A stretch of DNA of 64,000 bases from contig NC_057751.1 in NCBI RefSeq assembly GCF_004010195.1, positions 3,006,379-3,070,378 of the forward strand, in the 5' to 3' direction. The notes under the pieces are model-generated. The model ran no database searches, was not told the origin of the DNA, and saw only the letters and a program-made list of their open reading frames with translations. Shown piece after piece: positions 466-54,500 of this stretch. The translations under genes and the position numbers were made by a program. Numbering within the stretch: the first letter of the stretch is position 1; each line of letters opens with the position of its first letter. Source of the stretch: Chiloscyllium plagiosum. Taxonomy: Eukaryota.

Positions 466-1291
466 TTGTAGTGATTGGCTCAGTCCAGCATGCTCTAATC
501 CAATAGTTACAGCACTGACTGATGCTTGATATTTACCTGAGTGTACAAATTGGACTCTATTTTAGTCCTTCACTCAGTTTGTGCTGTTGAAGGGTTATAT
601 TTGAAGTTTGTGTGTTGCTGTTCCTGATGGAAGAGCCAGTTAGTGCATGATCTTGCATCTTCCAAGTGTTGGGGTGAGTTGGGGGTTCTTTCCAATCCAT
701 CCCTCCAACACAAAGTCAGGCAACAGCAAAGAGAGACTTTGGGTGTCAGAGGTGAACCCGTGTCATAGGGTACACAAAGTGTCTGTACAAGATCCTGGTC
801 AGTGTTGGGCCCCTTATCTCAGGAAGGATGTGCTGGGAATTAAATAGCCAGGGGTACCAGACTATTCGGAAGGATAGACAGGAATGCAAGGAAGGTGGTG
901 TAACTCTGATATTCGAGAACAACATCAGGGCAGTGCTGAGAGATGATATAGGCTCTTTGGAGCATACAGTCAAATCCATTTGGGTGGGAATTAGAAATTC
1001 TGAGAAGAAAAAGTCACTGTTAGGGGTAGTCTATAGGCCACCAAATAATAACATCACATCAGGGCGGGCAATAAACAAAGAAATTACTAATGACTGTAAA
1101 AATAGTAAGGCAATTATCATGGAGGATTTTAATCTACATGTCAATTGGTCAAACCAGCTCAGCCAGGGCAGCTTTGAGGAGGAATTCATTGAGTGTATCT
1201 GTGATAGTTTTCTTGAACAGTATGTAATGGAACCGACGAGGGAGCAACCTATCCTAGATCTGGTCCTGTGTAATAAGACAGGAATAATTAA

Positions 1292-1374
1292 GAAGGGCCT
1301 GTGCCCGAAACGTCGAATCTCCTGTTCCCTGGATGCTGCCTGACCTGCTGTGCTGTTCCAGCAATAAAGTTTCA
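1292..1374 (+). mobile_element. 83-bp PLE terminal-repeat insertion (family A), 14-bp TSD
   Basis: ACAGGAATAATTAA at 1278-1291 and 1375-1388; removing the insert restores the CR1 frame. Confidence 0.85.
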
Positions 1375-1814
1375 ACAGGAATAATTAATGACCTTATAGT
1401 TAGGGATCCTCTTGGAAGGAGCGATCACAATATGGTTGAATTTAGAATACAGATGAGGAGTGTAAAGATAAAATCCAATAGCAGGGTCCTGTGCTTAAAC
1501 AAGGGAGACGACAAGAGAATGAGAGAGGACTTGGCTAAAGAAGACTGGAAACAAAGAGTTTATGGTGGGGCAACTGACGAGCAGTGGAGGACTTTCAAAG
1601 CAATTTTTCAACGTGCTCATGAAAATTATATTCCAGTGAAAAGGAAGATCTGTAAGAAAAGGGGTACTCTGCCATGGGTGTCTAAGAAAATAAGGGACAC
1701 TATCAAATTGAAAGAGAAGGCGTACAAAGTGGCCAGAACAGCAGGAAACTAGAAGATTGGGAAAACTTTAAAGGTCAACAGAAAGCCACAAAAGAACTGT
1801 AAAGTTTTCCCAAT

Positions 1815-1916
1815 CTTGCAAACTCCACACAGTCAGTCGCCTGAGGCGGGAATTGAACCCGGGTCTCTGGCGCTGTGAGACAGCAGTGCTCACCACTGTG
1901 CCACCGTGCCACCCAC
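1815..1916 (-). mobile_element. tRNA-derived V-SINE 5' fragment (HE1-like)
   Basis: Reverse strand reads GGTGGCACGGTGGCACAGTGGTGAGCACTGCTG...GGTTCAATTCC, with A/B boxes. Confidence 0.8.
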
Positions 1917-3140
1917 CGTACCTCCGCTTTTGAGGAGGAGAAGAGGCATTTAGTTATGGGATATGATGAAACGGCCAAGGCACTGAAGAGGTGTTTGTAT
2001 TGGTCTTCACAGTGAAGGGCACCAATAACATGCCAGCAATTGACAAAGAGACAAATGTAAGTGAGGACCTGGAAAAAAAATCATTATTACTGCAGACGTA
2101 GTGTTGGGCAAGCTATTGGAGCTAAGGATAGACAAGTCTCCTAGCTCTGATGGAATGTATCCCAGGGGACTAAACAACATGGCGGGAGAAATAGCAGGTG
2201 GGCTGGCAGTAATTTTCCAAAATTCGCTGGACTCTGGGGCAGTCCCAGCAGATTGGAAAATTGCAAATGTGACGCCGTGGTTTAAAAAGGGAAGTGGACA
2301 AAAGATGAGGAATTATAGCCCAGTGAGCTTAACCTCTGTAGTGGGGATGATGCTTGAGTTTATTATTAATGAAGAAATAGCAGGGCATCATGAAAGAAAT
2401 TGTCCCATTGTACAGACACAGCATGGGTTCATGAAGGGCAGGTCATGCTTCACATATCTTTTGGAATTCTATGAAGACATTTCAAGCAAGGTAGACAACA
2501 GGGACCCAGTGGATGTGGTGTACCGAGATTTGTAAAAGGCCTTTGACAAGATACCACACATGAGGCTGCTGCATAAGATAAGAATGTGTGGTGTTAGGGT
2601 AGAGTATTAGCCGTGGATAGAGGATTGTTTGACTGAAGGAAGCAAAGAGTGGGGATAAATGAGTGGTATTCTGGCTGGCAATCAGTGACTAGTTGTGTGC
2701 CTCAGGGATCAGTGTTGGGACCACAATTATTTACAATTTAGAGAGATGATTTGGAGTTAGGGACCACGTGTCTGCAGGTACAACAAGTAATTAGGAAGGC
2801 AAATGGAATTTTTTCCTTCATTGCTGAAGGGGTTGAGTTTAAAAGCAGAAAGGTAATGTTACAGCTGTACAAGGTGCTGGTGAGGCCACACCTGGAGTAC
2901 TGTGTGCAGATTTGGTCTCCCTATTTAAGAAAGGATGTACTGGCACTTGAGGGAGTGCAGAGGAGGTTCACCCCGAGGTTGATTCCAGAGTTGAGGGGGT
3001 TGGCTTATGAGGAGAGACTGAGTAGACTGGGATTATATTCATTGGAATTCAGAAGAATGAGGGGGAGGGGGGAATCTTATAGAAATGCATAGAACTATGA
3101 AGGGAATTGATAAAATAAAAATAGACAGGATGTTTCTACA

Positions 3141-4216: not shown

Positions 4217-4338
4217 GTTCCTGATGAAGGGCTCCTGCCCGAAAAGTCGTTTTTCCTGCTCCTGAGATGTTGCCTGACCTGCTGTGCATTTCCAGCACCA
4301 CTCTAATCTTGACTGTAATCTCCAGCAGTCCTCACTTT
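4217..4338 (+). mobile_element. 122-bp hammerhead-headed PLE terminal-repeat insertion (family A), 10-bp TSD
   Basis: CACCCTGGCA at 4207-4216 and 4339-4348; begins GTTC-CTGATGA-A-GGGC-tcct-GCCC-GAAAA-GTC. Confidence 0.8.
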
Positions 4339-5217: not shown

Positions 5218-5340
5218 GATGTGGAGGTGCTGGTGTTGGGACTCGGGTAGACAAAGTCAGAAGTCTCACAAAACCAGGTTACAGCCCGACAGGTTTATTT
5301 GAAATCCCAGGCTTTCGGGACACTGCTCCTTCATCAGGTG
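5218..5340 (-). mobile_element. PLE-type terminal repeat (family B) with decayed hammerhead motif
   Basis: Reverse strand CAC-CTGATGA-A-GGAGC-agt-GTCCC-GAAAGCC; related to 42640-42806. Confidence 0.65.
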
Positions 5341-42500: not shown

Positions 42501-45500
42501 GACACAGCTGGAGCAGCTCAGAGTCTGAGCACTGCAAACTCCCAGCCTGTCTGCCTGGAATGGTGCTGAAGTCAGGCACCCACATCAGTGTTCACTGAGT
42601 TTGAGAGGAGGGGATCACATCCAAGGCTGCTGGAATGATCAAGTCAGAGGTCACACGCAGACACCAGGTTCCAGTCCACCAGGTTTACTTGAAATCACAA
42701 GCTGATTAAAAGAGCATCACTCCGAAAGCTGGTCATTTTGAATAAACCTGGTGTGGTGTGACTCGGGACTTTGTCCATCCCAGTCCAACATGGGCACCTC
42801 CACATCAGGGCTGTAAAGATAATGTAGGCACTGGTATTCCATCCCAAACCCTTTCTTCCTGGTGGTCATGAACAGCCTGCATATACTGACCAGCTGATAG
42901 CTCACCCACTTGGCCTGCACTGACAAGTCTCCATAGCCGGGCAGACCTCAGTCCGAACAGACAAACACAGAAGCTAGGTGCAAGAGGAGGCCCTTCAGCC
43001 CTTCCAGCCTCCTCCTCCATTCAACATGATCATTGCTATTGCATCCAACTCAGCTCCTTGTTCCTGCTCTCCCTTTGGTCCCTTTCACCTGAAGAACTGC
43101 AACTGTTTGTGCAGAGTGGTGGCTCAGTGGTTAGCACTTCTGCCTGACAGCGCCAGGGACCTGGGTTCGATTCTAGCCTCGGCTGACTGTCTGTGTGGAG
43201 TTAGCACATTGGCTCCTTGTCTGTGTGGGTTTCCTCCGGGTGCTCCGGTTTCCTCCCACACTCCACAGATTGGCCAAGTGAGTTGCCCATAATGCCCAGG
43301 GATGTGCATGGGAAAAGGATGGGGGCTGGGTCTGGGTGTATTGCTCTTCAAGAGGTTGATGTGAACTCGATGGGACAAGTGGCCTGCTTCACATTGAAGG
43401 GTTTCCCTGATTCAAACTCTTTATTGAAAAAATTGAATGTTTTGGCCTCAGCTGCGTTCTGTGGCAGAGAATTCCACAGGCTCCCCACTCTCTGGGTGAA
43501 GACTTATTTTCTCATCTTAGTCCAGCATAGCCCTCGTTAACCCTGGGTTTCAGCTGCCCAGACATAAGGAAAATCCTTCTTCTGTTTACCATGTTGAAGC
43601 CATTACAATTTTGTCTATTCTTCTGAAGTCCAGTTTGAACTGATCCACTCTCTCTTAGTGTGTCAGTCCTGCCATGCCAGGGATCAGTCTGGGAACCCAT
43701 CTCTCCACTCCCTCCTGAGCCTGAACATCCTTCCTCAGAGAACTGCACCCAGTCCTCCAGGTGTGGTCTCACCAAAGCCAGCAAGCCCTCCCTGCTCCTC
43801 TCCCTGTGAAGCCCTCCTCACTGCATGCTGCAGCTGCACGCTGAGTTTCAGGGCACACCTGGGTCACATTGCACCTCCCCCTCGCCCACTCTGTCGCCAT
43901 TCACATTATCATCTGCTCTGCTCTCAGATTTGGTTCCCAAACTGAATGAACCCACATTTATCCAGATTACACTGCACCTGCAATGCACTTGTCCAAATCC
44001 CAGTGAAGTATCTCTGTATCGTCCTCACTGCTCCCCCTCACACCCAGCTTTCTATGATCTGTAAACTTGGAGAGATCCCTCGTCTAAGTCAGGACTGTGT
44101 ATTAAGAATGGCTGGAGCCTTGCAGCACCCCACTCGTCATTCCCTGCCTCTGGGAAAGTGACCCTGTTTATTCCTCCTGTTTGTTTGCTGTCTGCCAGCC
44201 AGTGCTCTGTCCATGTCAGTACACAGGCCTCCGTTCCATGTGCTTTAAAGAACAGTGGGTCTGACAGACATTCCCTGTGCACCCGTACATTAAGCCTCCA
44301 TCCATTTACAGGCAGATTTATAGACATGATGGACATGTTGTGTCTGATTTTCAAAGCCTGTCCAGACCTGAGAGCAAGGAAGAAACCTCTGTTGAACATA
44401 GAACATAGAAAAGTACAGCAAAAAACAGGCCCTTTGGCCCACAATGTTGTGCCGAGACTGAATCCTAATGTAAAATATAGTAACTTAACCGACACACCCC
44501 TCAACTCACTGCTATCCATGTGCATGTCCAGCAGTCGCTTAAATGTCCCCAATGACTCTGCTTCCACCACCACCGCTGGCAACGCATTCCATGCATTCAC
44601 AACTCTCTGTGTAAAGGACCTACCTCTGACGTCTCCTTTATACTTTCCTCCTAATATCTTCAAACTATGACTCCTCGTACCAGTCAATCCTGCCCTGGGG
44701 AAAAGTCTGTGGCTATGAAGTACTTTGGTCAATCTCCAAACAGCTCAATTAAAGCCCCTCTCATTTCTCTCAAGTCTTAAAATAAGATCAGAATTATTTG
44801 CAAAGCCACAGGTTAACAGCAAACAGTCTTCAGAGAGCTGGGTCTCAGATTCACTCATCGCGATCCACTCTGGCTCTTGCCAGCTCCATCCTGTCAAACT
44901 GGGGAAATATTCAAAAGACTTCAATTCCTCACATAACTTTTAGCACCTTGAGATGTCCCAACGTGTGTCTGAGCCAGTGATTTATTTTAAAGTATAGTCA
45001 CTGATCTCAGAAGTTCCCTCCCAGCAGAATTTCACAGACATCTGAAGCAGATTTGGTGGTATACATCGACATCGTATCCCTTTTTAATAAGGAGAAGGTT
45101 ATGTATTGGAGTGCTGCAGGTAGAGGACATCTCTACAGTCTTCTCCATAACACTGGCCTGAATTTGTCACATGGCACTTTGCTCGAGCATTAAAGGTAGA
45201 TTGTATTCATTTAGTACTGACCCTCCGACAGTGAGGCACTCGCTCAGCAGTGACCCTACGACAGTGCGGCATTCCCTCAGCACTGACCCTCTGACAATGT
45301 GGCACTCCCTCAGCACTGACCCTCTGACAGTGCGTCACTCCCTCAGTACTGACTCTCTGATAGTGCCTACTCCCTCAGTACGGACCCCTCCGACAGTGCC
45401 TACTCCCTCAGCACTGACCCTCTGACAGTGCCCACTCCCTCAGCACTGACCCTCTGACAGTGCAGCACTCCCTCAGCACTGACCCTCTGACAGTGCGGTG

Positions 45501-48500
45501 CTCCCTCAGTACTGACCCTCCGACAGTGCATTACTGACCCTCCGACAGTGCAGTGCTTCCTCAGTACTGAGCCTCCGACAGTGCAGCACTCCCCCAGCAC
45601 TCCCTCAGCACTGACCCTCCGACAGTGCGGCACTCTCTCAGCACTGACCCTCCGACAGTGCCCATTCCCTAAGTACTGACACTCCGACAGTGTGGCACTC
45701 CCCTCAGTACTGACCCTCAGACAGTGCAACACTCCCTCAGTACTGACCCTCCAACAGTGTGGCACTCCCTCAGTACTGACCCTCAGACAGTGCAACACTC
45801 CCTCAGTACTGACCGTCCCACAGTGCGGCACACCCTCAGCACTGACCCTTTGACAGTGCCCACTCCCTCAGCACTGACCCTCCAACAGTGCGGCACACCC
45901 TCAGCACTGACCCTCTGACCGTACGGCACTCCCTCAGCACTGACCCTCTGACCGTGCGGCACTCCCTCAGCACTGAGCCTCNNNNNNNNNNNNNNNNNNN
46001 NNNNNNNNNNNNNNNNNNNNNNNNNNNNNNNNNNNNNNNNNNNNNNNNNNNNNNNNNNNNNNNNNNNNNNNNNNNNNNNNNNNNNNNNNNNNNNNNNNNN
46101 NNNNNNNNNNNNNNNNNNNNNNNNNNNNNNNNNNNNNNNNNNNNNNNNNNNNNNNNNNNNNNNNNNNNNNNNNNNNNNNNNNNNNNNNNNNNNNNNNNNN
46201 NNNNNNNNNNNNNNNNNNNNNNNNNNNNNNNNNNNNNNNNNNNNNNNNNNNNNNNNNNNNNNNNNNNNNNNNNNNNNNNNNNNNNNNNNNNNNNNNNNNN
46301 NNNNNNNNNNNNNNNNNNNNNNNNNNNNNNNNNNNNNNNNNNNNNNNNNNNNNNNNNNNNNNNNNNNNCCTCAGCACTGACCCTTTGACAGTGCCCACTC
46401 CCTCAGCACTGACCCTCCGACAGTGCGGCACTCCCTCAGCACTGACCCTCCGACAGTGCGGCACTCCCTCAGCACTGACCCTCCGACAATCCAGCGCTCC
46501 CTCAGCACTGAGCCTCCGACAATCCAGCGCTCCCTCAGCACTGAGCCTCCGACAATCCAGCTCTCCGTCAGTAGAGTTTGGAATGTCAGCTGGAATGTTT
46601 GCCTCCATGCCTTGGCTGATTGATGTGAAGCTCATTGGATGAGCTTTGATTATGTTGTCGTTTGCTCTTTGCAGTCCAAAGGAAATCAACAAGGAGCAGT
46701 GTGAAGTCTGCAGCATGCGTTGTGGAAGGAAGTTGGTGAAAGATGGTGATGTAAGTCTTGAGAAAGTAGCAAAGAGACTTTGTGAACAGACTTGTGAAGC
46801 AGCAGAGCTGCTCTTAAGTTGCTAAACCAACAGCTGGCCAGGGTTAACTATCCTCCAGCCGCCTCCTAACCTTCCTGTCCTCACCTGCTCAGCATCTGCT
46901 TCTCTTCCTAGCTCCCTCTTGCATTTAATCCACACCCAGCACTGCCTGAGATACAGAGTTGCACATCCTCAGCACTTGCAAGGTGATTGGGATTCTGCTG
47001 AATCCCTTGCTGCCTTATTTGCAGTGATGGCCTTGAGTTTTGCACATGGAGATGTACGGCATGGAAACAGACCTTTTGGTCCAACCCGTCCATGCCAACC
47101 CGATATCCTCAATTAATCTCGTCCCACCTGCCAGCACTTAGCCCATAAATCTCTAAACCCTCCCTGTTCATATACCATTCAGATGCTGTTTAAATAGCGG
47201 GTTTTGAGATTTGTTGCTCAGTTTGACATTTTGGATGTAGGTTTGCTCACTGAGCTGCAAGGTTCATTTCCAGATGTTTCGTCACCATCACTTGGTAACA
47301 TCTTCTGTGGGCCTCAGGCTGAAAATTTCTGCTTTCTATTTATATGTTTGGGTTGGTGATGTTATTTCCTGTGGTGAGGTCACTTCCTGTTCCTTTTCTC
47401 AGCGGGTGGTAGATGGGGTCTAACTCGATGTGTTTGTTGATAGAGTTCCGGTTGGAATGCCATGCTTCTAGGAATTCTCATGTGTGTCATTGTTTGGCTT
47501 GTCGACTGGGGCAACACCTCCATCCTTGGGAAAAAAATACCTTCACTATTTATCCTATCCATGCCCCTCATAATTTTGTAAACCTGTATAAAGTCACCCC
47601 TCAGCCTCCAACACTCCAGGAAAAATAATCCCAGCCTGTTCAGCCTCTCCCTGTAGCTCAAACTCTCCAACCCTGGCAACATCCTTGTAAATCTTTTCTG
47701 AACCCTTTCAAGTTTCACAACATCCTTCCAATAGCAGGGAGACCAGCATTGCATGTTCGACGTGAAAGCTGACATGTTTGTTACAGGGTACAAGTTTGAA
47801 ATTGTTTGCGTTTGTCTGTAATGGACTGGTTTATGTTTGAAGGTCTGCAGCCTTCTTGGAATGTATTATTCAAATTGTTAGAGTGCTGTGGGGAAATTTC
47901 CCCAAGGACATTGCAGTCTCAGTGCTGTCCTCGTTTCTTGTATGGTAGCATCTGGGTCTGCTCCTGACAAAGTGTCACTTCCCCTTGGCAGATTGAAGGA
48001 CTTTGTCCTCAAAGATTGGTCTCCATTCCGTAGGCTGGCTGAATTTCCTTTATATACATCCGCTGCTGCAGCTCATCTGCAGTAACTGCTTGAATAAGCA
48101 GTATAAACAGCCCCTACAATGAGTATGGTTGCTGGTTTCAAAGAAGTGCAGCGATTGTAGAGTTCACCCTGGATAAATGCCAAGTGATTCATTCTGGAAG
48201 GTCGAATTTGAATGCTGAATATAGGGTTAAGGACAGGATTCTTGGCAGTGTGGAGGAACAGCAGGAACTTGGGGTTCATATACGTGGATCCCTCAAAGAT
48301 GCCACCCAAGTTGATAGAGTTTGTGCGACGATTTGTAGCTCGGGTGCTCGTTGTTGTGGTTCTGTTTGCCGAGCTGGAAGTTTTTGTTGCAAACGTTTCG
48401 TCCCCTGGCTAGGCGACATCATCAGTGCTTGGGAGCCTCCTGCGAAGCGCTTCTTTGATGTTTCCTCCGGTGTTTATAGTGGTCTGTCCCTGTCGCTTCC

Positions 48501-51500
48501 GGTTGTCAGTTTCAGCTGTCCGCTGTAGTGGCCGGTATATTGGGTCCAGATCGATGTGTTTGTTGATGGAGTTTGTGGATGAATCATTCACAAAAACTTC
48601 CAGCTCGGCAAACAGAACCACAGCAAGTTGATAGAGTTGTTTAGAAGGCATATGGTGTTTTGGTTTTCATTTATCAGGTAAATGAGTTGAAGAGCCGCGA
48701 GGTTTTGCTGCAGCTCTGTAAAACCCTGGTTAGACCACACTTGGAATATTGTGTCCAGTTCTGGTCACCTCATGATGGGAAGGATGCCGATACTTTTGAG
48801 AGGGTGCAGAGGAGATTTACCAGGATGCTGTCTGGATTGGAGGGCTTGTCTTAGGAAGGGAGGTAGAGTGAGCTAGGGCTTTTCACACTGGAGAGAGGAA
48901 GGAAGAGAGGTGAGTCATAGATAGCCAGAGACTTTTCCCTAGGGCAGAAATAGCTGTCATGAAGGGTCATAATATTAAGGTAATTGGAGGCGGGTATAGG
49001 GGAGATGTCAGAGGGAGATTCTTTACGCAGAGAGTAGTGGGTGTGTAGAATGCACTGCCAGCAGTGGTCGTAGAATCAGAGACGTTCGGGCCATTTAAGC
49101 AACTGCTGGACAAACACATGGACAGCAGTAAATTGTGAGGTGTGTAGGTTAGGTTGGTCTTCGATCAGGGGCAATGCTCGATACAACGTTGTGGGCCAAA
49201 GGGTCTGTACTGTGCTGTACTGTTCTCTGTTCTTTAAATGACCTGCTGATTGTTCTGTGTAAAGCTGCATCTTAAAATATTGACGTAACCCATTTCAGAA
49301 AAGAATGATGGCATTTGCACTCCTTAATCTGACTGCTAATGAATTGAATGACAGATTTATTCAGGGGAAATCATGTTTGACTGCATTAATCCAGTTCCTG
49401 GATGAAGAAGCAGATTGTACTGATGAGGGAAGTGCAGCTGCTGTTTGATCAAGTCCCACGTAATAGACTTGTCAGCAAGATTGAAGCGCAAGGGAATTTA
49501 TGGGACACTGCCTGCACAGAGATGTAATTGGCTTTGTGACAGAATGCACTGATTATTGGTGAGCGACTCTGTTTTAATTTGGAGGAAGGACTCTCCAGGG
49601 ATTGACTTGCAGAGCAGTGCTCTGTCTGTGAAGATATGATTGACTTGGACTGAGACTGAGAGCAGTCTGCTGATGCACTGGGTCATTTCCCAGCTTCAAA
49701 TCACACTGCAAGATTTGATGGTCAAGGGAGGTTTGTCTGTAATGTGGCCGGATAGGTCCAGCGGCAGATGGTCAGAATGGGAGAGATTCCTGGTCAGCCA
49801 CATGGATGGGGATAACCTTACAGTCTCTGCCATCGCAACCCTGAGCCCCACATGCTGCCTGCTGCTGCTGAGTGAAAGGGCACACTTGGGATAGTGTTTG
49901 CAAGATTTGAGGTGGTTGGGTGGGATGGGGGTGTAGACCGGAATGGACCCAGGGATGGAGTGTTGTAGCTACATAGAGAGGCAAGAGGAACTGGTGTCTG
50001 TCTCCTTGGAGTAAAGAGCATTTCCCCTGTTTCTCTGAGATGGAGGGGTCAGTCATGGTCATCTGCTCCAGTCTGTGTTCTGGCACATTTCAGAGGTGTA
50101 CTCTGCTGACATTGCTGGAGAAACTCAGCAGTTCTGAGCAAGGGTCCCTGGACGTCAAACATGAACTCTGTTCCTTTCTCCCCAGATACTGGGTTTCTGC
50201 CCCAGTTTCTGCTTTTGTTTCATGCTGACCATGATCTGGTGCACCGCCTGCTCACCTGGAAACCTCAGGCCCTGCAAAGCCAGAGAGGAGGGGGAGGTTC
50301 CGACGTAGTTTACAATCTGCCACAGCACATGGCTGCATGCTGGTGTTTGTCAACTTGTGACAATGAGCTGGAGCTGCAGGGGCTGCATGGACTGCTCAGC
50401 ACATCAGATTCGCCTGGAGTCATTCCATACAAAGAATGGTGGGTGCAATAGGGCACTAGCTGGTTTCAACACGCACTTCAAACTGGGCCATCGAATGAAC
50501 TGACCGAGCTGTTCACACTCCTGTTTCTGCTGTGTTAGTGTGGGAGTTTGCTTCTTGTCCCATTGCAGGCTTTTTCAGGTGGCTGTGGTTTTTGATCCAT
50601 GATAATTGACCGCATCCTCACAGAATGGTACTTCCGCCTTTCAGAAATGATGGGGGTGCTGATGTGGGGATTTGATCTGCTGTCTGGGAAATGATTGGCC
50701 AGAATATCAGGCTCATTCTCAGCCTGCAAAGCCACTGCAGCTGCCATCTCAGCAGAAAGTCGGAGCATTGAGGAGATTTGGAATGTAACACATTGGAGAT
50801 TGGTCAGGAGGTGAACACAAACTGGCCCCCCTCAGTGAAATGCTCACCGCTACACAAGGCCAAGTCTCCACGCTGAGGCTGAGGCTGAGGCTTTGCAGGC
50901 TCCTGTGGAGACTGTTCACCAACCAGAGTAAGATCCTCAACCCCAGCTCTTCGCAAAAACTCCAAAACAGGATTCACCTTGGAGCTGATGACAAGTGCAG
51001 TGTTTATTCTCATCAGTCAGCTTTCACTCGATGGAATGGTTTCACTTCTATTCCAGCTTGTGTTAACAAACAATGACTTCCTTAGTACAAAAAAGTCATC
51101 ATGTTGTATGTGAATTTTGGATGGAAATTTGAGATGTTTGCCTTCCAGCTCCAGTGATTTGATGAAAATGTTTAGTTGGGACATGATAGTGAGAGATTTG
51201 AACCTCCTTTCCCATCCCTGCAGTACATTGCACAGACTCACTCCCCATGGGCAAGAAAGATTCACCCAAGTTCCTAATTTTACCGATGTTGAACTGATCT
51301 CCCTGGCTCTCCCCCAAATCCTGAAACGTGGAAACCTCTCAGTTTGTGGACACGGTCAGTTCTTGACTTCTTGTTCCAGTCTCGATGTGGTCAGCCCCTT
51401 CAGCAGTGGCAGTCGGTTGTAAATACACTGTGAGACTGAGCGTGATCAGCTTGACATTGTCTTGTGGTCTGCTCAAAGTATTTTCCAAGCTCATCCAGCA

Positions 51501-54500
51501 GGTGGTAGTGAAACTGGTCGATGTGGAATCTGAGTCGTATCAAACAATGTGTGTGATTTGTCCCCACGCTGCACAGCACCACCACCCACCCCGGTCCCAG
51601 TCCCCTCTGCACAGGGTTGGTTATCAGTGAAAGTGATGTTGGAGCAATTACTGGTTGTGAGATGCTTTTGAGTGACAATGCTGTTGTGTCTTGCCTCTCC
51701 CCAGTACTGCTGGCGATGGACTGGTTTCAGCTTTGGCTTTGATCTGCTGGTGACCTACACAAACCGATTCATCATCTTCAAGAGGAACAGCCTGAGCCAG
51801 CCGTGTAATGGGGCTGTCAGCCTCCTTCCTCGCAGGAATATCGCCTTTCGGTAGGAGCGACCTTCCCACACTGGGCCAGACCCCTTCCTCTTCCCAGACC
51901 TTCCTTCATGTGGGTGACAGGAGACACTGGAAAGGTGCATGTATTGAGACCCTGTGTTCAGATGTGCAGCAGTTCCAACCTGTTAGTCAATAGCTTGAAT
52001 CATTCCTTGTACAGCAATCTGCCTTATTGGTGTTGCCCATTGATGGTCACTGCTTGTCGGTGGGAGAGTTCACATCTCCAGTTGAAACCCTATGTTGTAC
52101 ACCCGTGAGGTCCTGCTGAATCCCTGACCTCAAGGATTCTGTCTTTGTGTCATTGACATCTCACCGTTCCCCACACAGAGTCAGCTCTGTCCAAACCCCC
52201 TCCCATAAACAATCTCTCTCCTGGTGCTGTCTCCAGAACTGCACTGGAAAGGTGAGCCTCTGGCAGCACATGGCCAATTCTCACCATTTGTAAATAGCAA
52301 TCTCAGGACAGTCTCCGCGCAGGATCGCAACTCAACCAACTGGAGGCATACCAGGTGATGGATGAAGCTGAGGGGTCTGGGAATGAAATTCCCTTCCCTT
52401 CCTGAAAATGTCTTCTGAGGCATGTCCCTCCTTGCAGGTCTGCGCTGTCAGTGATACAGTTGCGTCCTTAGATGTCAGTGCCAGTTTCTGCTTCTCACTC
52501 CCATCAGTTGTGGAGAGGAGATGTGTGAGGGACGGTCTTTGCAGCTGTGTGGGAAGATGTTGGAGCTGCTGTCACTAACACTCCTGATGAGCTGTCTCCC
52601 CCAAAGGGCTCAGGGATAATGGTGCTGCCACATTGTCACATCCCAGTGGGAATTCCTCTGTACAGTCACAGGGTGGTTGCTGAGGTCTGTCTGAATCTTC
52701 AGGGGACCAAAGCAGTCAGCTTCAGACTTGTTCTTCCCCCCCCCCCCCCCCCCCAGTTCCCACCTCAATTACACTGGTGAACTCACTATTGCTTCCAGCT
52801 ACCCCCCACCCCTCGGTCTGTGTCCCCTCTTCCAGCTTCCCCCCCCCATTCTGTCTGTCTGTGTCCCCTCTTCCATCTCCCAGTTCATCCCAGGCTCTGG
52901 AATTCCCTGCGTAAATCTCATGTCCTTGGTGTAATCCGGTCCTTGCCCAAACCTTCAGCCTTGTTTGGTCTCCTTGGCATGGTGTGAATTTTGCCTTGTT
53001 GTACTCTGTACACTGTGGACCCATGAACCTGTCTCTCAGTGCAAATTCCCTACAGCTTGACTCCATTTTAATTCCACCCTGATCTGGATTCCTTGACATG
53101 CTGAACCCCTGGTGTCAGGTTTGAAGAGTTTGCTGGCTTCATCCTAACCTTGAGTCTTAGGGTGGACAGTTATCAGTCAAGCCCCAAAGACCTAGTCACA
53201 GAGATAAGAAAGTAGTGCCTCACCCATGGGATTTCCAAAGTGATTGCTCACAGTTCTTTTTCCAAAAAGGCTCCATTCTCTGCTCGACAGAGAATCCGCC
53301 CACATGCTGAGAGTGTCCGTTGTCTTGATTGCAATCTTTCTGATAAATGTCACCCAGTGGTGATTGAATTTGTTGCTTATTGAGAAGTGAGGGATGAAGC
53401 TGGAGTATCTGATCAGTCAGTTTGGGACATGGACTGAGAGTGTTTGATTTAATGTGCTGCCTTGTTCAGTCCAATCATTATGGTCCCAGCAGACACTGCA
53501 ATGACATTCACCTTCCACTCCAATGTCGCCTTGACCAAGTTGCTCTTAAACCTCTCTCATATTTCTCTTTAAGACATTGATTGATTGTGAGGCAAAGAGG
53601 GAACCGATTGGTGATCAGGAACAGCACCATTCACTCCATGCCAATCTGTGAAGCTGAAACCTGCGATTTTTCCTCACGCTTGTTGGGTTGTACCTGGCTT
53701 TGTGATGTGTTTGTGTGCAGTTCAGTAGGTCGGTGCCTTTATCAGATGCATACACAGTTTCTCTCTCAATGTGAAAGGTGCCCAATAGCAGTTGAGTGAG
53801 GAGAAATTGACGAGGAGGCCATTGGACCCTTCCTCGCTGTGCTAGCTCATTACCAGTGTGTTATGCTGTCATCCAGCTGCACCTTTGCATCCTCTTGCCC
53901 CTGAAACAGAAGCTGTTACCTCATCAGCCACTTGTGTAAATGTGTCCCACATGCACGCCCCCCCCCCCCCCCACCCCCAGTTGGTGAGGGTTTTATTTGT
54001 TGGTTCCTCTTTGTAATTTACACAACCCTGAGATGATAATCTCTTGCACTGACAGGTCTTTCTCAGGACCCTTGAACAGTTGGATAGCTTTCCCAATGTG
54101 AGCTGTGTAATATTCTCCAGATCTCTCCAGTGTCACACGCAGCCTCAACGCCACTTCCATCAATATGTCTGCGTGCTCACACAGTGATCATTGCTGTCAT
54201 TCCCAGTGTTACAGTGACGTTAATCCTTGGTTTGTTGTGAAGATCAAGAGAGCTTCCTGTTGCCAGGCTGCATGCCAGCTTTGTGGGACAGTGCGTTCCA
54301 GGAAGCCATTTGGTCCTTCGAACCTGTACTAGCTGCCTTGAGCTGTCACTCACCATCCCCTGTGCCTTCCCCTTTGGCCATGTTTGTACCTTGTTACTCA
54401 GCGACGGGAGTATCCAATTCTGTTTTGTCTGAATCAGTGTCCTCCACAGCCTCGCCACACTCTCTGTTTCACTGCAGTTTCTGCTTCTTGTACTGAAATG

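Follow-up and report, generated by a model that had tools for sequence, protein, structure and literature searches.

A minimal type I hammerhead motif in a gmcl1-like intron of Chiloscyllium plagiosum arrived with the truncated end of a young PLE and is likely an inert passenger

The window, a stretch of 64,000 nucleotides from Chiloscyllium plagiosum (contig NC_057751.1), carries on its plus strand a BTB gene that is probably gmcl1, to judge from its protein motifs. Weak BTB matches fall on three of 10 exons (E 0.04-0.12), and an Atlas search with the gene product came back blank, with no database giving a gene name. Thirteen coding exons were located and a 14th, inside a run of N, is demanded by the reading phase, which makes the intron of interest intron 11. 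Its splice joint (46750 to 51705, GT..AG) is present in contigs from three of four RNA runs, and the hammerhead motif within it lies on the minus strand, antisense to the gene, as the original prediction had it. Arrays of a 33-bp tandem repeat occupy intron 10 (45177-46612), and a decayed LINE ORF2 with endonuclease and RT fragments lies upstream of the first exon (about 750-3100, plus strand). Intron 11 also holds an older copy of a related PLE subfamily (47180-47480, minus strand), whose hammerhead, at about 47270-47310, is decayed, with two conserved positions altered. The features of the locus are:

46751..51704, plus strand: host intron, the 11th by exon count, of the gmcl1-like BTB gene (splice joint, exons)
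48180..49230, limits approximate, plus strand: older LINE 3' fragment split by the insertion (translations on both sides)
48307..48321, plus strand: left target-site duplication (TSD), 15 bp (sequence comparison)
48318..48584, minus strand: 5'-truncated PLE 3' end (pLTR plus tail), reaching the family's long 3' end (copy similarity, common 3' end)
48318..48351, minus strand: tail between the family's two clustered 3' ends, about +40 and +79 from the cut (3'-end tally)
48318..48419, minus strand: start of the next ORF unit, running through the tail (continues into the ORF in copies L045 and L046; open to YVDD in L187)
48389..48428, minus strand: minimal type I hammerhead motif (sequence, descriptor against shuffles, 3,519 exact genomic copies)
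48411-48409, minus strand: TAG stop in stem II/loop of the hammerhead (translation; RT-EN-TAG frame in L173, L174 and L188)
48409..48584, minus strand: C-terminal remnant of the element ORF (translation)
48585..48589, no strand: 5-nt junction between main copy and inverted stub (sequence)
48590..48626, plus strand: inverted stub of the same element, 37 bp, ending at the short 3' end (inverted repeat I3, 97%)
48624..48638, plus strand: right TSD, 15 bp (first 3 nt common to the stub)

The insertion measures ~300 bp and consists of a 267-bp main part on the minus strand, whose last four nucleotides overlap the target duplication, the 5-nt junction and the 37-bp inverted stub, flanked by the 15-bp TSD. 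The stub is devoid of a hammerhead core. The LINE fragment that the insertion split is presumably of CR1 type, to judge from its C-terminal peptide, and a second copy of it lies at 44400-44716. Stub and main copy differ at one site (48606-48623 versus 48354-48371) that is polymorphic in the family, and the difference is either a later mutation or a sign of two template RNAs in one insertion. No empty-site joint was seen among the 15 joints listed (136 more exist) in RNA contigs. The original prediction had left out this surrounding element, with its TSD, ORF end, tail and inverted stub, as well as its copy number.

Re-reading of the sequence recovered the predicted letters and coordinates exactly on the minus strand (48428-48389). 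The conserved CUGAUGA and GAAA core bases are intact, a single unpaired U sits between A9 and G10.1, stem I has 3 bp, and stem II has six of seven pairs, pair 4 being a G.G mismatch; the GUU triplet at 48394-48392 places the predicted cut between 48392 and 48391, again as first described. The motif thus combines the hallmarks of minimal hammerheads: a CUGANGA and GAAA core with an NUH triplet, an extra base between positions 9 and 10.1 followed by a G10.1-C11.1 pair, a palindromic 15.2/16.2 (ACGU) devoid of loop III, and a long helix II with a short helix I that show compensatory change between families. The exception to the otherwise paired helix II is pair 4, which is unpaired in the window copy's subfamily. 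The claim that stem III is the palindrome AAACGUUU stands in part: the segment is palindromic, but only its ACGU (4 nt) can serve as helix III. The rest of AAACGUUU covers A13 and A14 of the core, U17 at the cleavage site and stem I's U1.1, so that established hammerhead geometry leaves an active dimer nothing but ACGU for helix III. The same geometry is found in the Fig. 1 text of PMC4209133.

A chance resemblance or an assembly artefact could be argued from the folding z-score of the 40-mer, which is only -1.2, and from an Rfam scan of 44000-53000 that returned no hammerhead match at E<=10. The probability of this explanation is negligible: a minimal-hammerhead descriptor matched the window once, where 100 dinucleotide shuffles averaged 0.06 (loose) or 0 (strict) matches, the exact 40-mer has 3,519 genomic copies against 0 for the reversed control, the stems covary, and the copy is bounded by a TSD. 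The motif at 48389..48428 is a real PLE minimal type I hammerhead and an ordinary addition to a known type.

Minimal hammerheads were reported from the pLTRs of metazoan PLEs in 2014 (Cervera and De la Pena, PMC4209133), and the motif resembles them in its short helix I, its CUGANGA with one bulged base, its long helix II with G10.1-C11.1, its GAAAC-GUH devoid of loop III, and its thousands of dispersed single copies from truncated PLEs. Copy numbers are different, with 19,347 long-stem and 112,978 short-stem core matches genome-wide here versus about 4,000 in coelacanth and 9,000 in Xenopus (PMC4209133), counts obtained with differing descriptors. No cartilaginous fish appears in the searched text and supplementary parts of PMC4209133, and one preprint describes PLEs from five classes of vertebrates and retrozymes from a single chondrichthyan (bioRxiv 10.64898/2026.07.22.740005). 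A shark-specific description of the family was not found in the literature covered.

A genome search returned 2,075 candidates, of which 40 were scored: the window copy itself and 39 further ones at 97-98%. Set against the majority of 25 relatives of equal length, the window copy has five differences in 262 sites, and these relatives differ from one another by 1.4%; the copy is therefore young, which agrees with the original prediction (98% to its nearest copies). The intact motif at the window locus reflects this youth rather than local selection.

The longer copies disclose the parent element. Long relatives contain an RVT_1 match (E 5e-11) with YVDD, and longer copies carry a VVY..YIG endonuclease motif whose nearest Atlas clusters are GIY-YIG (0.92-0.93), a family annotated on 20-30% of the members of those clusters; direct Pfam scans of the longer copies did not detect GIY-YIG, and a PDB search with the RT had no match under E 0.1. 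RT, EN and the hammerhead TAG follow one another in a single frame at three of 17 loci (L173, L174 and L188), and none of the 17, which were best matches or first places on contig C1 and hence a non-random sample, holds an intact full-length ORF. The long open frames in four of seven full-length candidates turned out to be runs of N, and the full unit was put together from overlapping natural copies, so its continuity is presumed. One copy, L046, spans a whole unit, with 2,502 nt from one hammerhead to the next, so tandem units exist. Judged from translated sequence, the longer copies have the coding features of EN+ PLEs, an RT plus a GIY-YIG-like endonuclease at the C-terminal end of the same ORF, and they display the corresponding layout of partial tandems forming pLTRs, an inverted truncated copy and a one-ended tail, as in the scheme in the Fig. 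2 legend of PMC8557442. The translated RT-EN linker is, by eye, devoid of a Cys cluster or Zn-finger, which, by the linker criterion of PMC8557442, points to a probable place in the Penelope/Poseidon clade. The earlier assignment to a PLE minimal type I hammerhead is thus borne out by core, palindrome and stems, and by longer copies that encode RT and a GIY-YIG-like endonuclease.

Identity with a non-LTR retrozyme was considered and rejected: the window holds a single copy, and 20+ of 29 relatives have ORF sequence upstream. Non-LTR retrozymes (PMC7229834; bioRxiv 10.64898/2026.07.22.740005) share the type I hammerhead from PLE pLTRs, but they are non-coding tandem arrays, whereas what the window holds is one truncated end, not in tandem, from a coding element. 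One locus (L049:3743-4267) contains, inside a PLE copy, a run of about 12 tandem 45-bp repeats that consist of the inverted pLTR start; this array is a minisatellite born from the element.

The ORF ends and begins inside the hammerhead. An ATG (48419-48417) is formed by A9, the bulged U and G10.1, and the bulged base is U in 98 of the 100 listed matches where it was free to vary (by eye). The ATG is present in 145/145 copies, a count partly fixed by the search patterns used. The L187 copy has no stop from this ATG through YVDD, within an open stretch of 567 aa, and the ATG probably serves as the start codon. In L173, L174 and L188 the RT-EN frame closes at the TAG 8 nt past the ATG, in stem II/loop, and a stop at core+14 recurs in 127 of 145 copies across subfamilies. 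A continuous ORF requires a unit length of 1 modulo 3, which the L187 core spacing of 2,503 fits (hand count); L045, L046 and L061 are broken copies with unit lengths that do not fit.

Overlap of the ATG with the hammerhead has already been published for the Poseidon element of Anolis carolinensis, PAc (Frangieh et al. 2024, PMC11167929). As in PAc, the ORF starts at the base of stem II with the cut downstream (28 nt from ATG to cut here versus 26 in PAc), two 3' ends bound a tail inside the ORF start, and the protein would comprise an N-terminal region, RT and C-terminal GIY-YIG (PMC11167929). The positions of the 3' ends here, about 68 and 107 nt from the ORF start, differ from PAc. A stop codon in the same hammerhead is present here and goes without mention for PAc in the available text of PMC11167929; no report of one was found in the portions of the literature searched. 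It is conceivable, though we consider it unlikely, that the hammerhead is a triple-coded switch with start codon, stop codon and ribozyme overlapping in 40 nt. If so, the ~2,503-nt unit would have no untranslated region and its ORF would be 11 nt longer than the unit itself; the cut would end the upstream message 17 nt past the stop and strip the ATG from the next unit, and cleavage would limit expression, with whole protein made only from a tandem transcript or a re-ligated circle.

Stems I and II covary among subfamilies. A tally of 151 copies shows three states for stem I's outer pair (G-C, C-G, U-A) and three for stem II pair 3 (C-G, U-G, U-A); position 7 is free to be T, G or A, in line with expectation. 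Ten hand-picked copies had 91% of cells paired, against 30-44% in slid controls, and a covariation score of 0.289 that was reached in 0/500 shuffles, a figure that is no probability given that the rows are related. Three pairs show two-sided change, an unremarkable count that shuffles reach in 37/500. Stem I/II covariation across genomic copies, on which the original prediction had staked itself, is present over subfamilies (151 copies; 10-row test). Given this covariation, selection has acted on the fold within the lineage of the element.

The hammerhead is least ideal in the youngest subfamily, which combines a G.G mismatch with GUU. Pair 4 of stem II is A-U in older groups (36/43), A.G in subfamily B (29/31) and G.G in the youngest, A (73/77), and H17, which is C in older groups, is U in A and in some of B (GUC to GUU). 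The age order was drawn from copy divergence, and a loop-5 subfamily with 106 matches was added as an extra group. This drift, together with the stop conserved at core+14, could mean that the youngest subfamilies keep the motif mainly for two overlapping reading frames as catalysis weakens; folding further predicts that GUU strengthens the palindromic duplex, to 8 bp at -5.3 versus -3.1 kcal/mol, and a dimer would then have its cleavage site buried. We regard this as a tentative and rather unlikely reading: the core positions and stem I are all intact in A and B, GUU is frequent among published minimal hammerheads (PMC4209133 Fig. S3 text) and is listed as an active site (PMC3138052), and the trend relies on an order derived from divergence, not a tree.

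The 3' ends of the family bear on how copies are made. In the 136 copies that extend beyond cut+30, the ends form clusters near +40 and +79, and 30 of 31 inverted pairs combine one long end with one short end. The window insertion is of the same type, a long-end main copy with a short-end stub. The RNA that served as insertion template had likely not been cut at the hammerhead, or had been re-joined there. The motif of the source element lies where tandem units meet, at the end of one ORF and the beginning of another. Anolis PAc has two internal RT start sites with both strands extended (PMC11167929), and by analogy both DNA strands are likely to have primed synthesis here, using two internal sites that lie downstream of the hammerhead, which gave the long-end copy and the short-end inverted stub, presumably within one event. 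Many tail copies (L093-L122 and the breakpoint listing) join upstream element sequence via short microhomologies, suggesting frequent template jumps during reverse transcription.

Cut RNA as a template was considered after two inverted stubs were found to begin near the cut, that of the window at +4 and that of L020 at -1. The idea was dropped, since larger breakpoint samples were without excess. Tails lacking the stem II GG number 624 by pattern; breakpoints within -1..+1 of the cut were counted by eye in 12 of 100 listed among these (11.5 expected) and by script in five of 30 retrieved copies (3.5 expected), both counts mixing small internal deletions with true truncations. A broader version, in which hammerhead-processed RNA is the transposition template via the monomer release and circularisation proposed in PMC4209133, draws on the existence of tandem units (core spacing 2,502 in L046), on the start/stop overlap by which a re-ligated unit circle would hold a complete ORF, and on the fact that such a circle leaves the DNA unmarked, beyond the reach of the breakpoint test. 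We nevertheless judge it improbable: linear cut RNA is not favoured by the breakpoints, thousands of copies continue across the cut site, RNA run X18 is without a pile-up of RNA ends (a weak test), and PAc inserts from uncut RNA in vitro (PMC11167929).

The original prediction described the window copy as possibly still catalytic, a claim that folding models and published analogues speak against. The minimum-energy fold of the monomer (-11.1 kcal/mol) pairs the core with the triplet, the open-core fold reaching -8.7, and for two copies the prediction is an extended duplex, likewise inactive, at -29.7; these energies leave out tertiary contacts and help from protein. A lone monomer, which is what the window holds, is thus predicted to fold into an inactive rod. 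Published work saw no cleavage of minimal hammerhead monomers and weak cleavage of dimers (PMC4209133), cleavage was recorded in one of nine Xenopus dimers (bioRxiv 10.64898/2026.07.22.740005), and the PAc hammerhead needed the element's protein and was dispensable for insertion in vitro (PMC11167929). The source-element hammerhead likely cleaves weakly, as an ACGU dimer or with the element's protein.

Run X18 shows that the family is transcribed, with reads crossing the cut site. No RNA-end pile-up at the cut was reported in about 2% of X18, a single-cell library made from poly(A) RNA with fragmentation; ends at the cut were likewise not seen for PAc in the available text of PMC11167929. Many X18 reads pass into unrelated flanks at both 3' ends, as would read-through of dispersed copies. 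The search of RNA runs gave no run listed as holding the intron, and RNA reads at the locus carry the family letter, not that of the window copy, at diagnostic sites (91/91 at 48329). A domesticated window copy, active in cutting an antisense transcript and thereby affecting gmcl1, might be proposed from the intact core and the position in an expressed gene, but is highly improbable: the motif is one of 3,519 identical ones in a copy about 2% from its relatives, no same-orientation partner lies within the window, the motif is antisense to the pre-mRNA, and the local reads bear family letters. What lies at the locus is, with high confidence, the hammerhead motif of a PLE end, copied into the intron with a TSD, and the lone antisense copy is likely an inert passenger.

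For the host gene, gmcl1, the insertion is most likely without importance. For PLE biology, the family provides a natural test set of thousands of near-identical young copies, with subfamilies graded from a paired stem with GUC to a mismatched stem with GUU, strict pairing of long and short ends, and no trace of cut templates. Genomic DNA here supports what was found in vitro, insertion of PLEs from uncut RNA, and the family makes the role of the PLE hammerhead a testable question.

A second minimal hammerhead type, with a 4-bp stem II, was observed in the same genome, with 112,978 core-intact matches against 21 in the control. A tblastn search of RT/EN pieces against 12 short-stem loci gave no match to a coding parent. 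Of 23 short-stem copies at the loci examined (L152-L163), about 18 (by eye) start no more than a few bases upstream of the core, in the form of fold-back pairs or 90-130-nt elements, a sharp 5' boundary of which cleavage cannot be the source. Decayed copies of this type are present in the window at 4221-4244 (plus strand) and 5313-5337 (minus strand).
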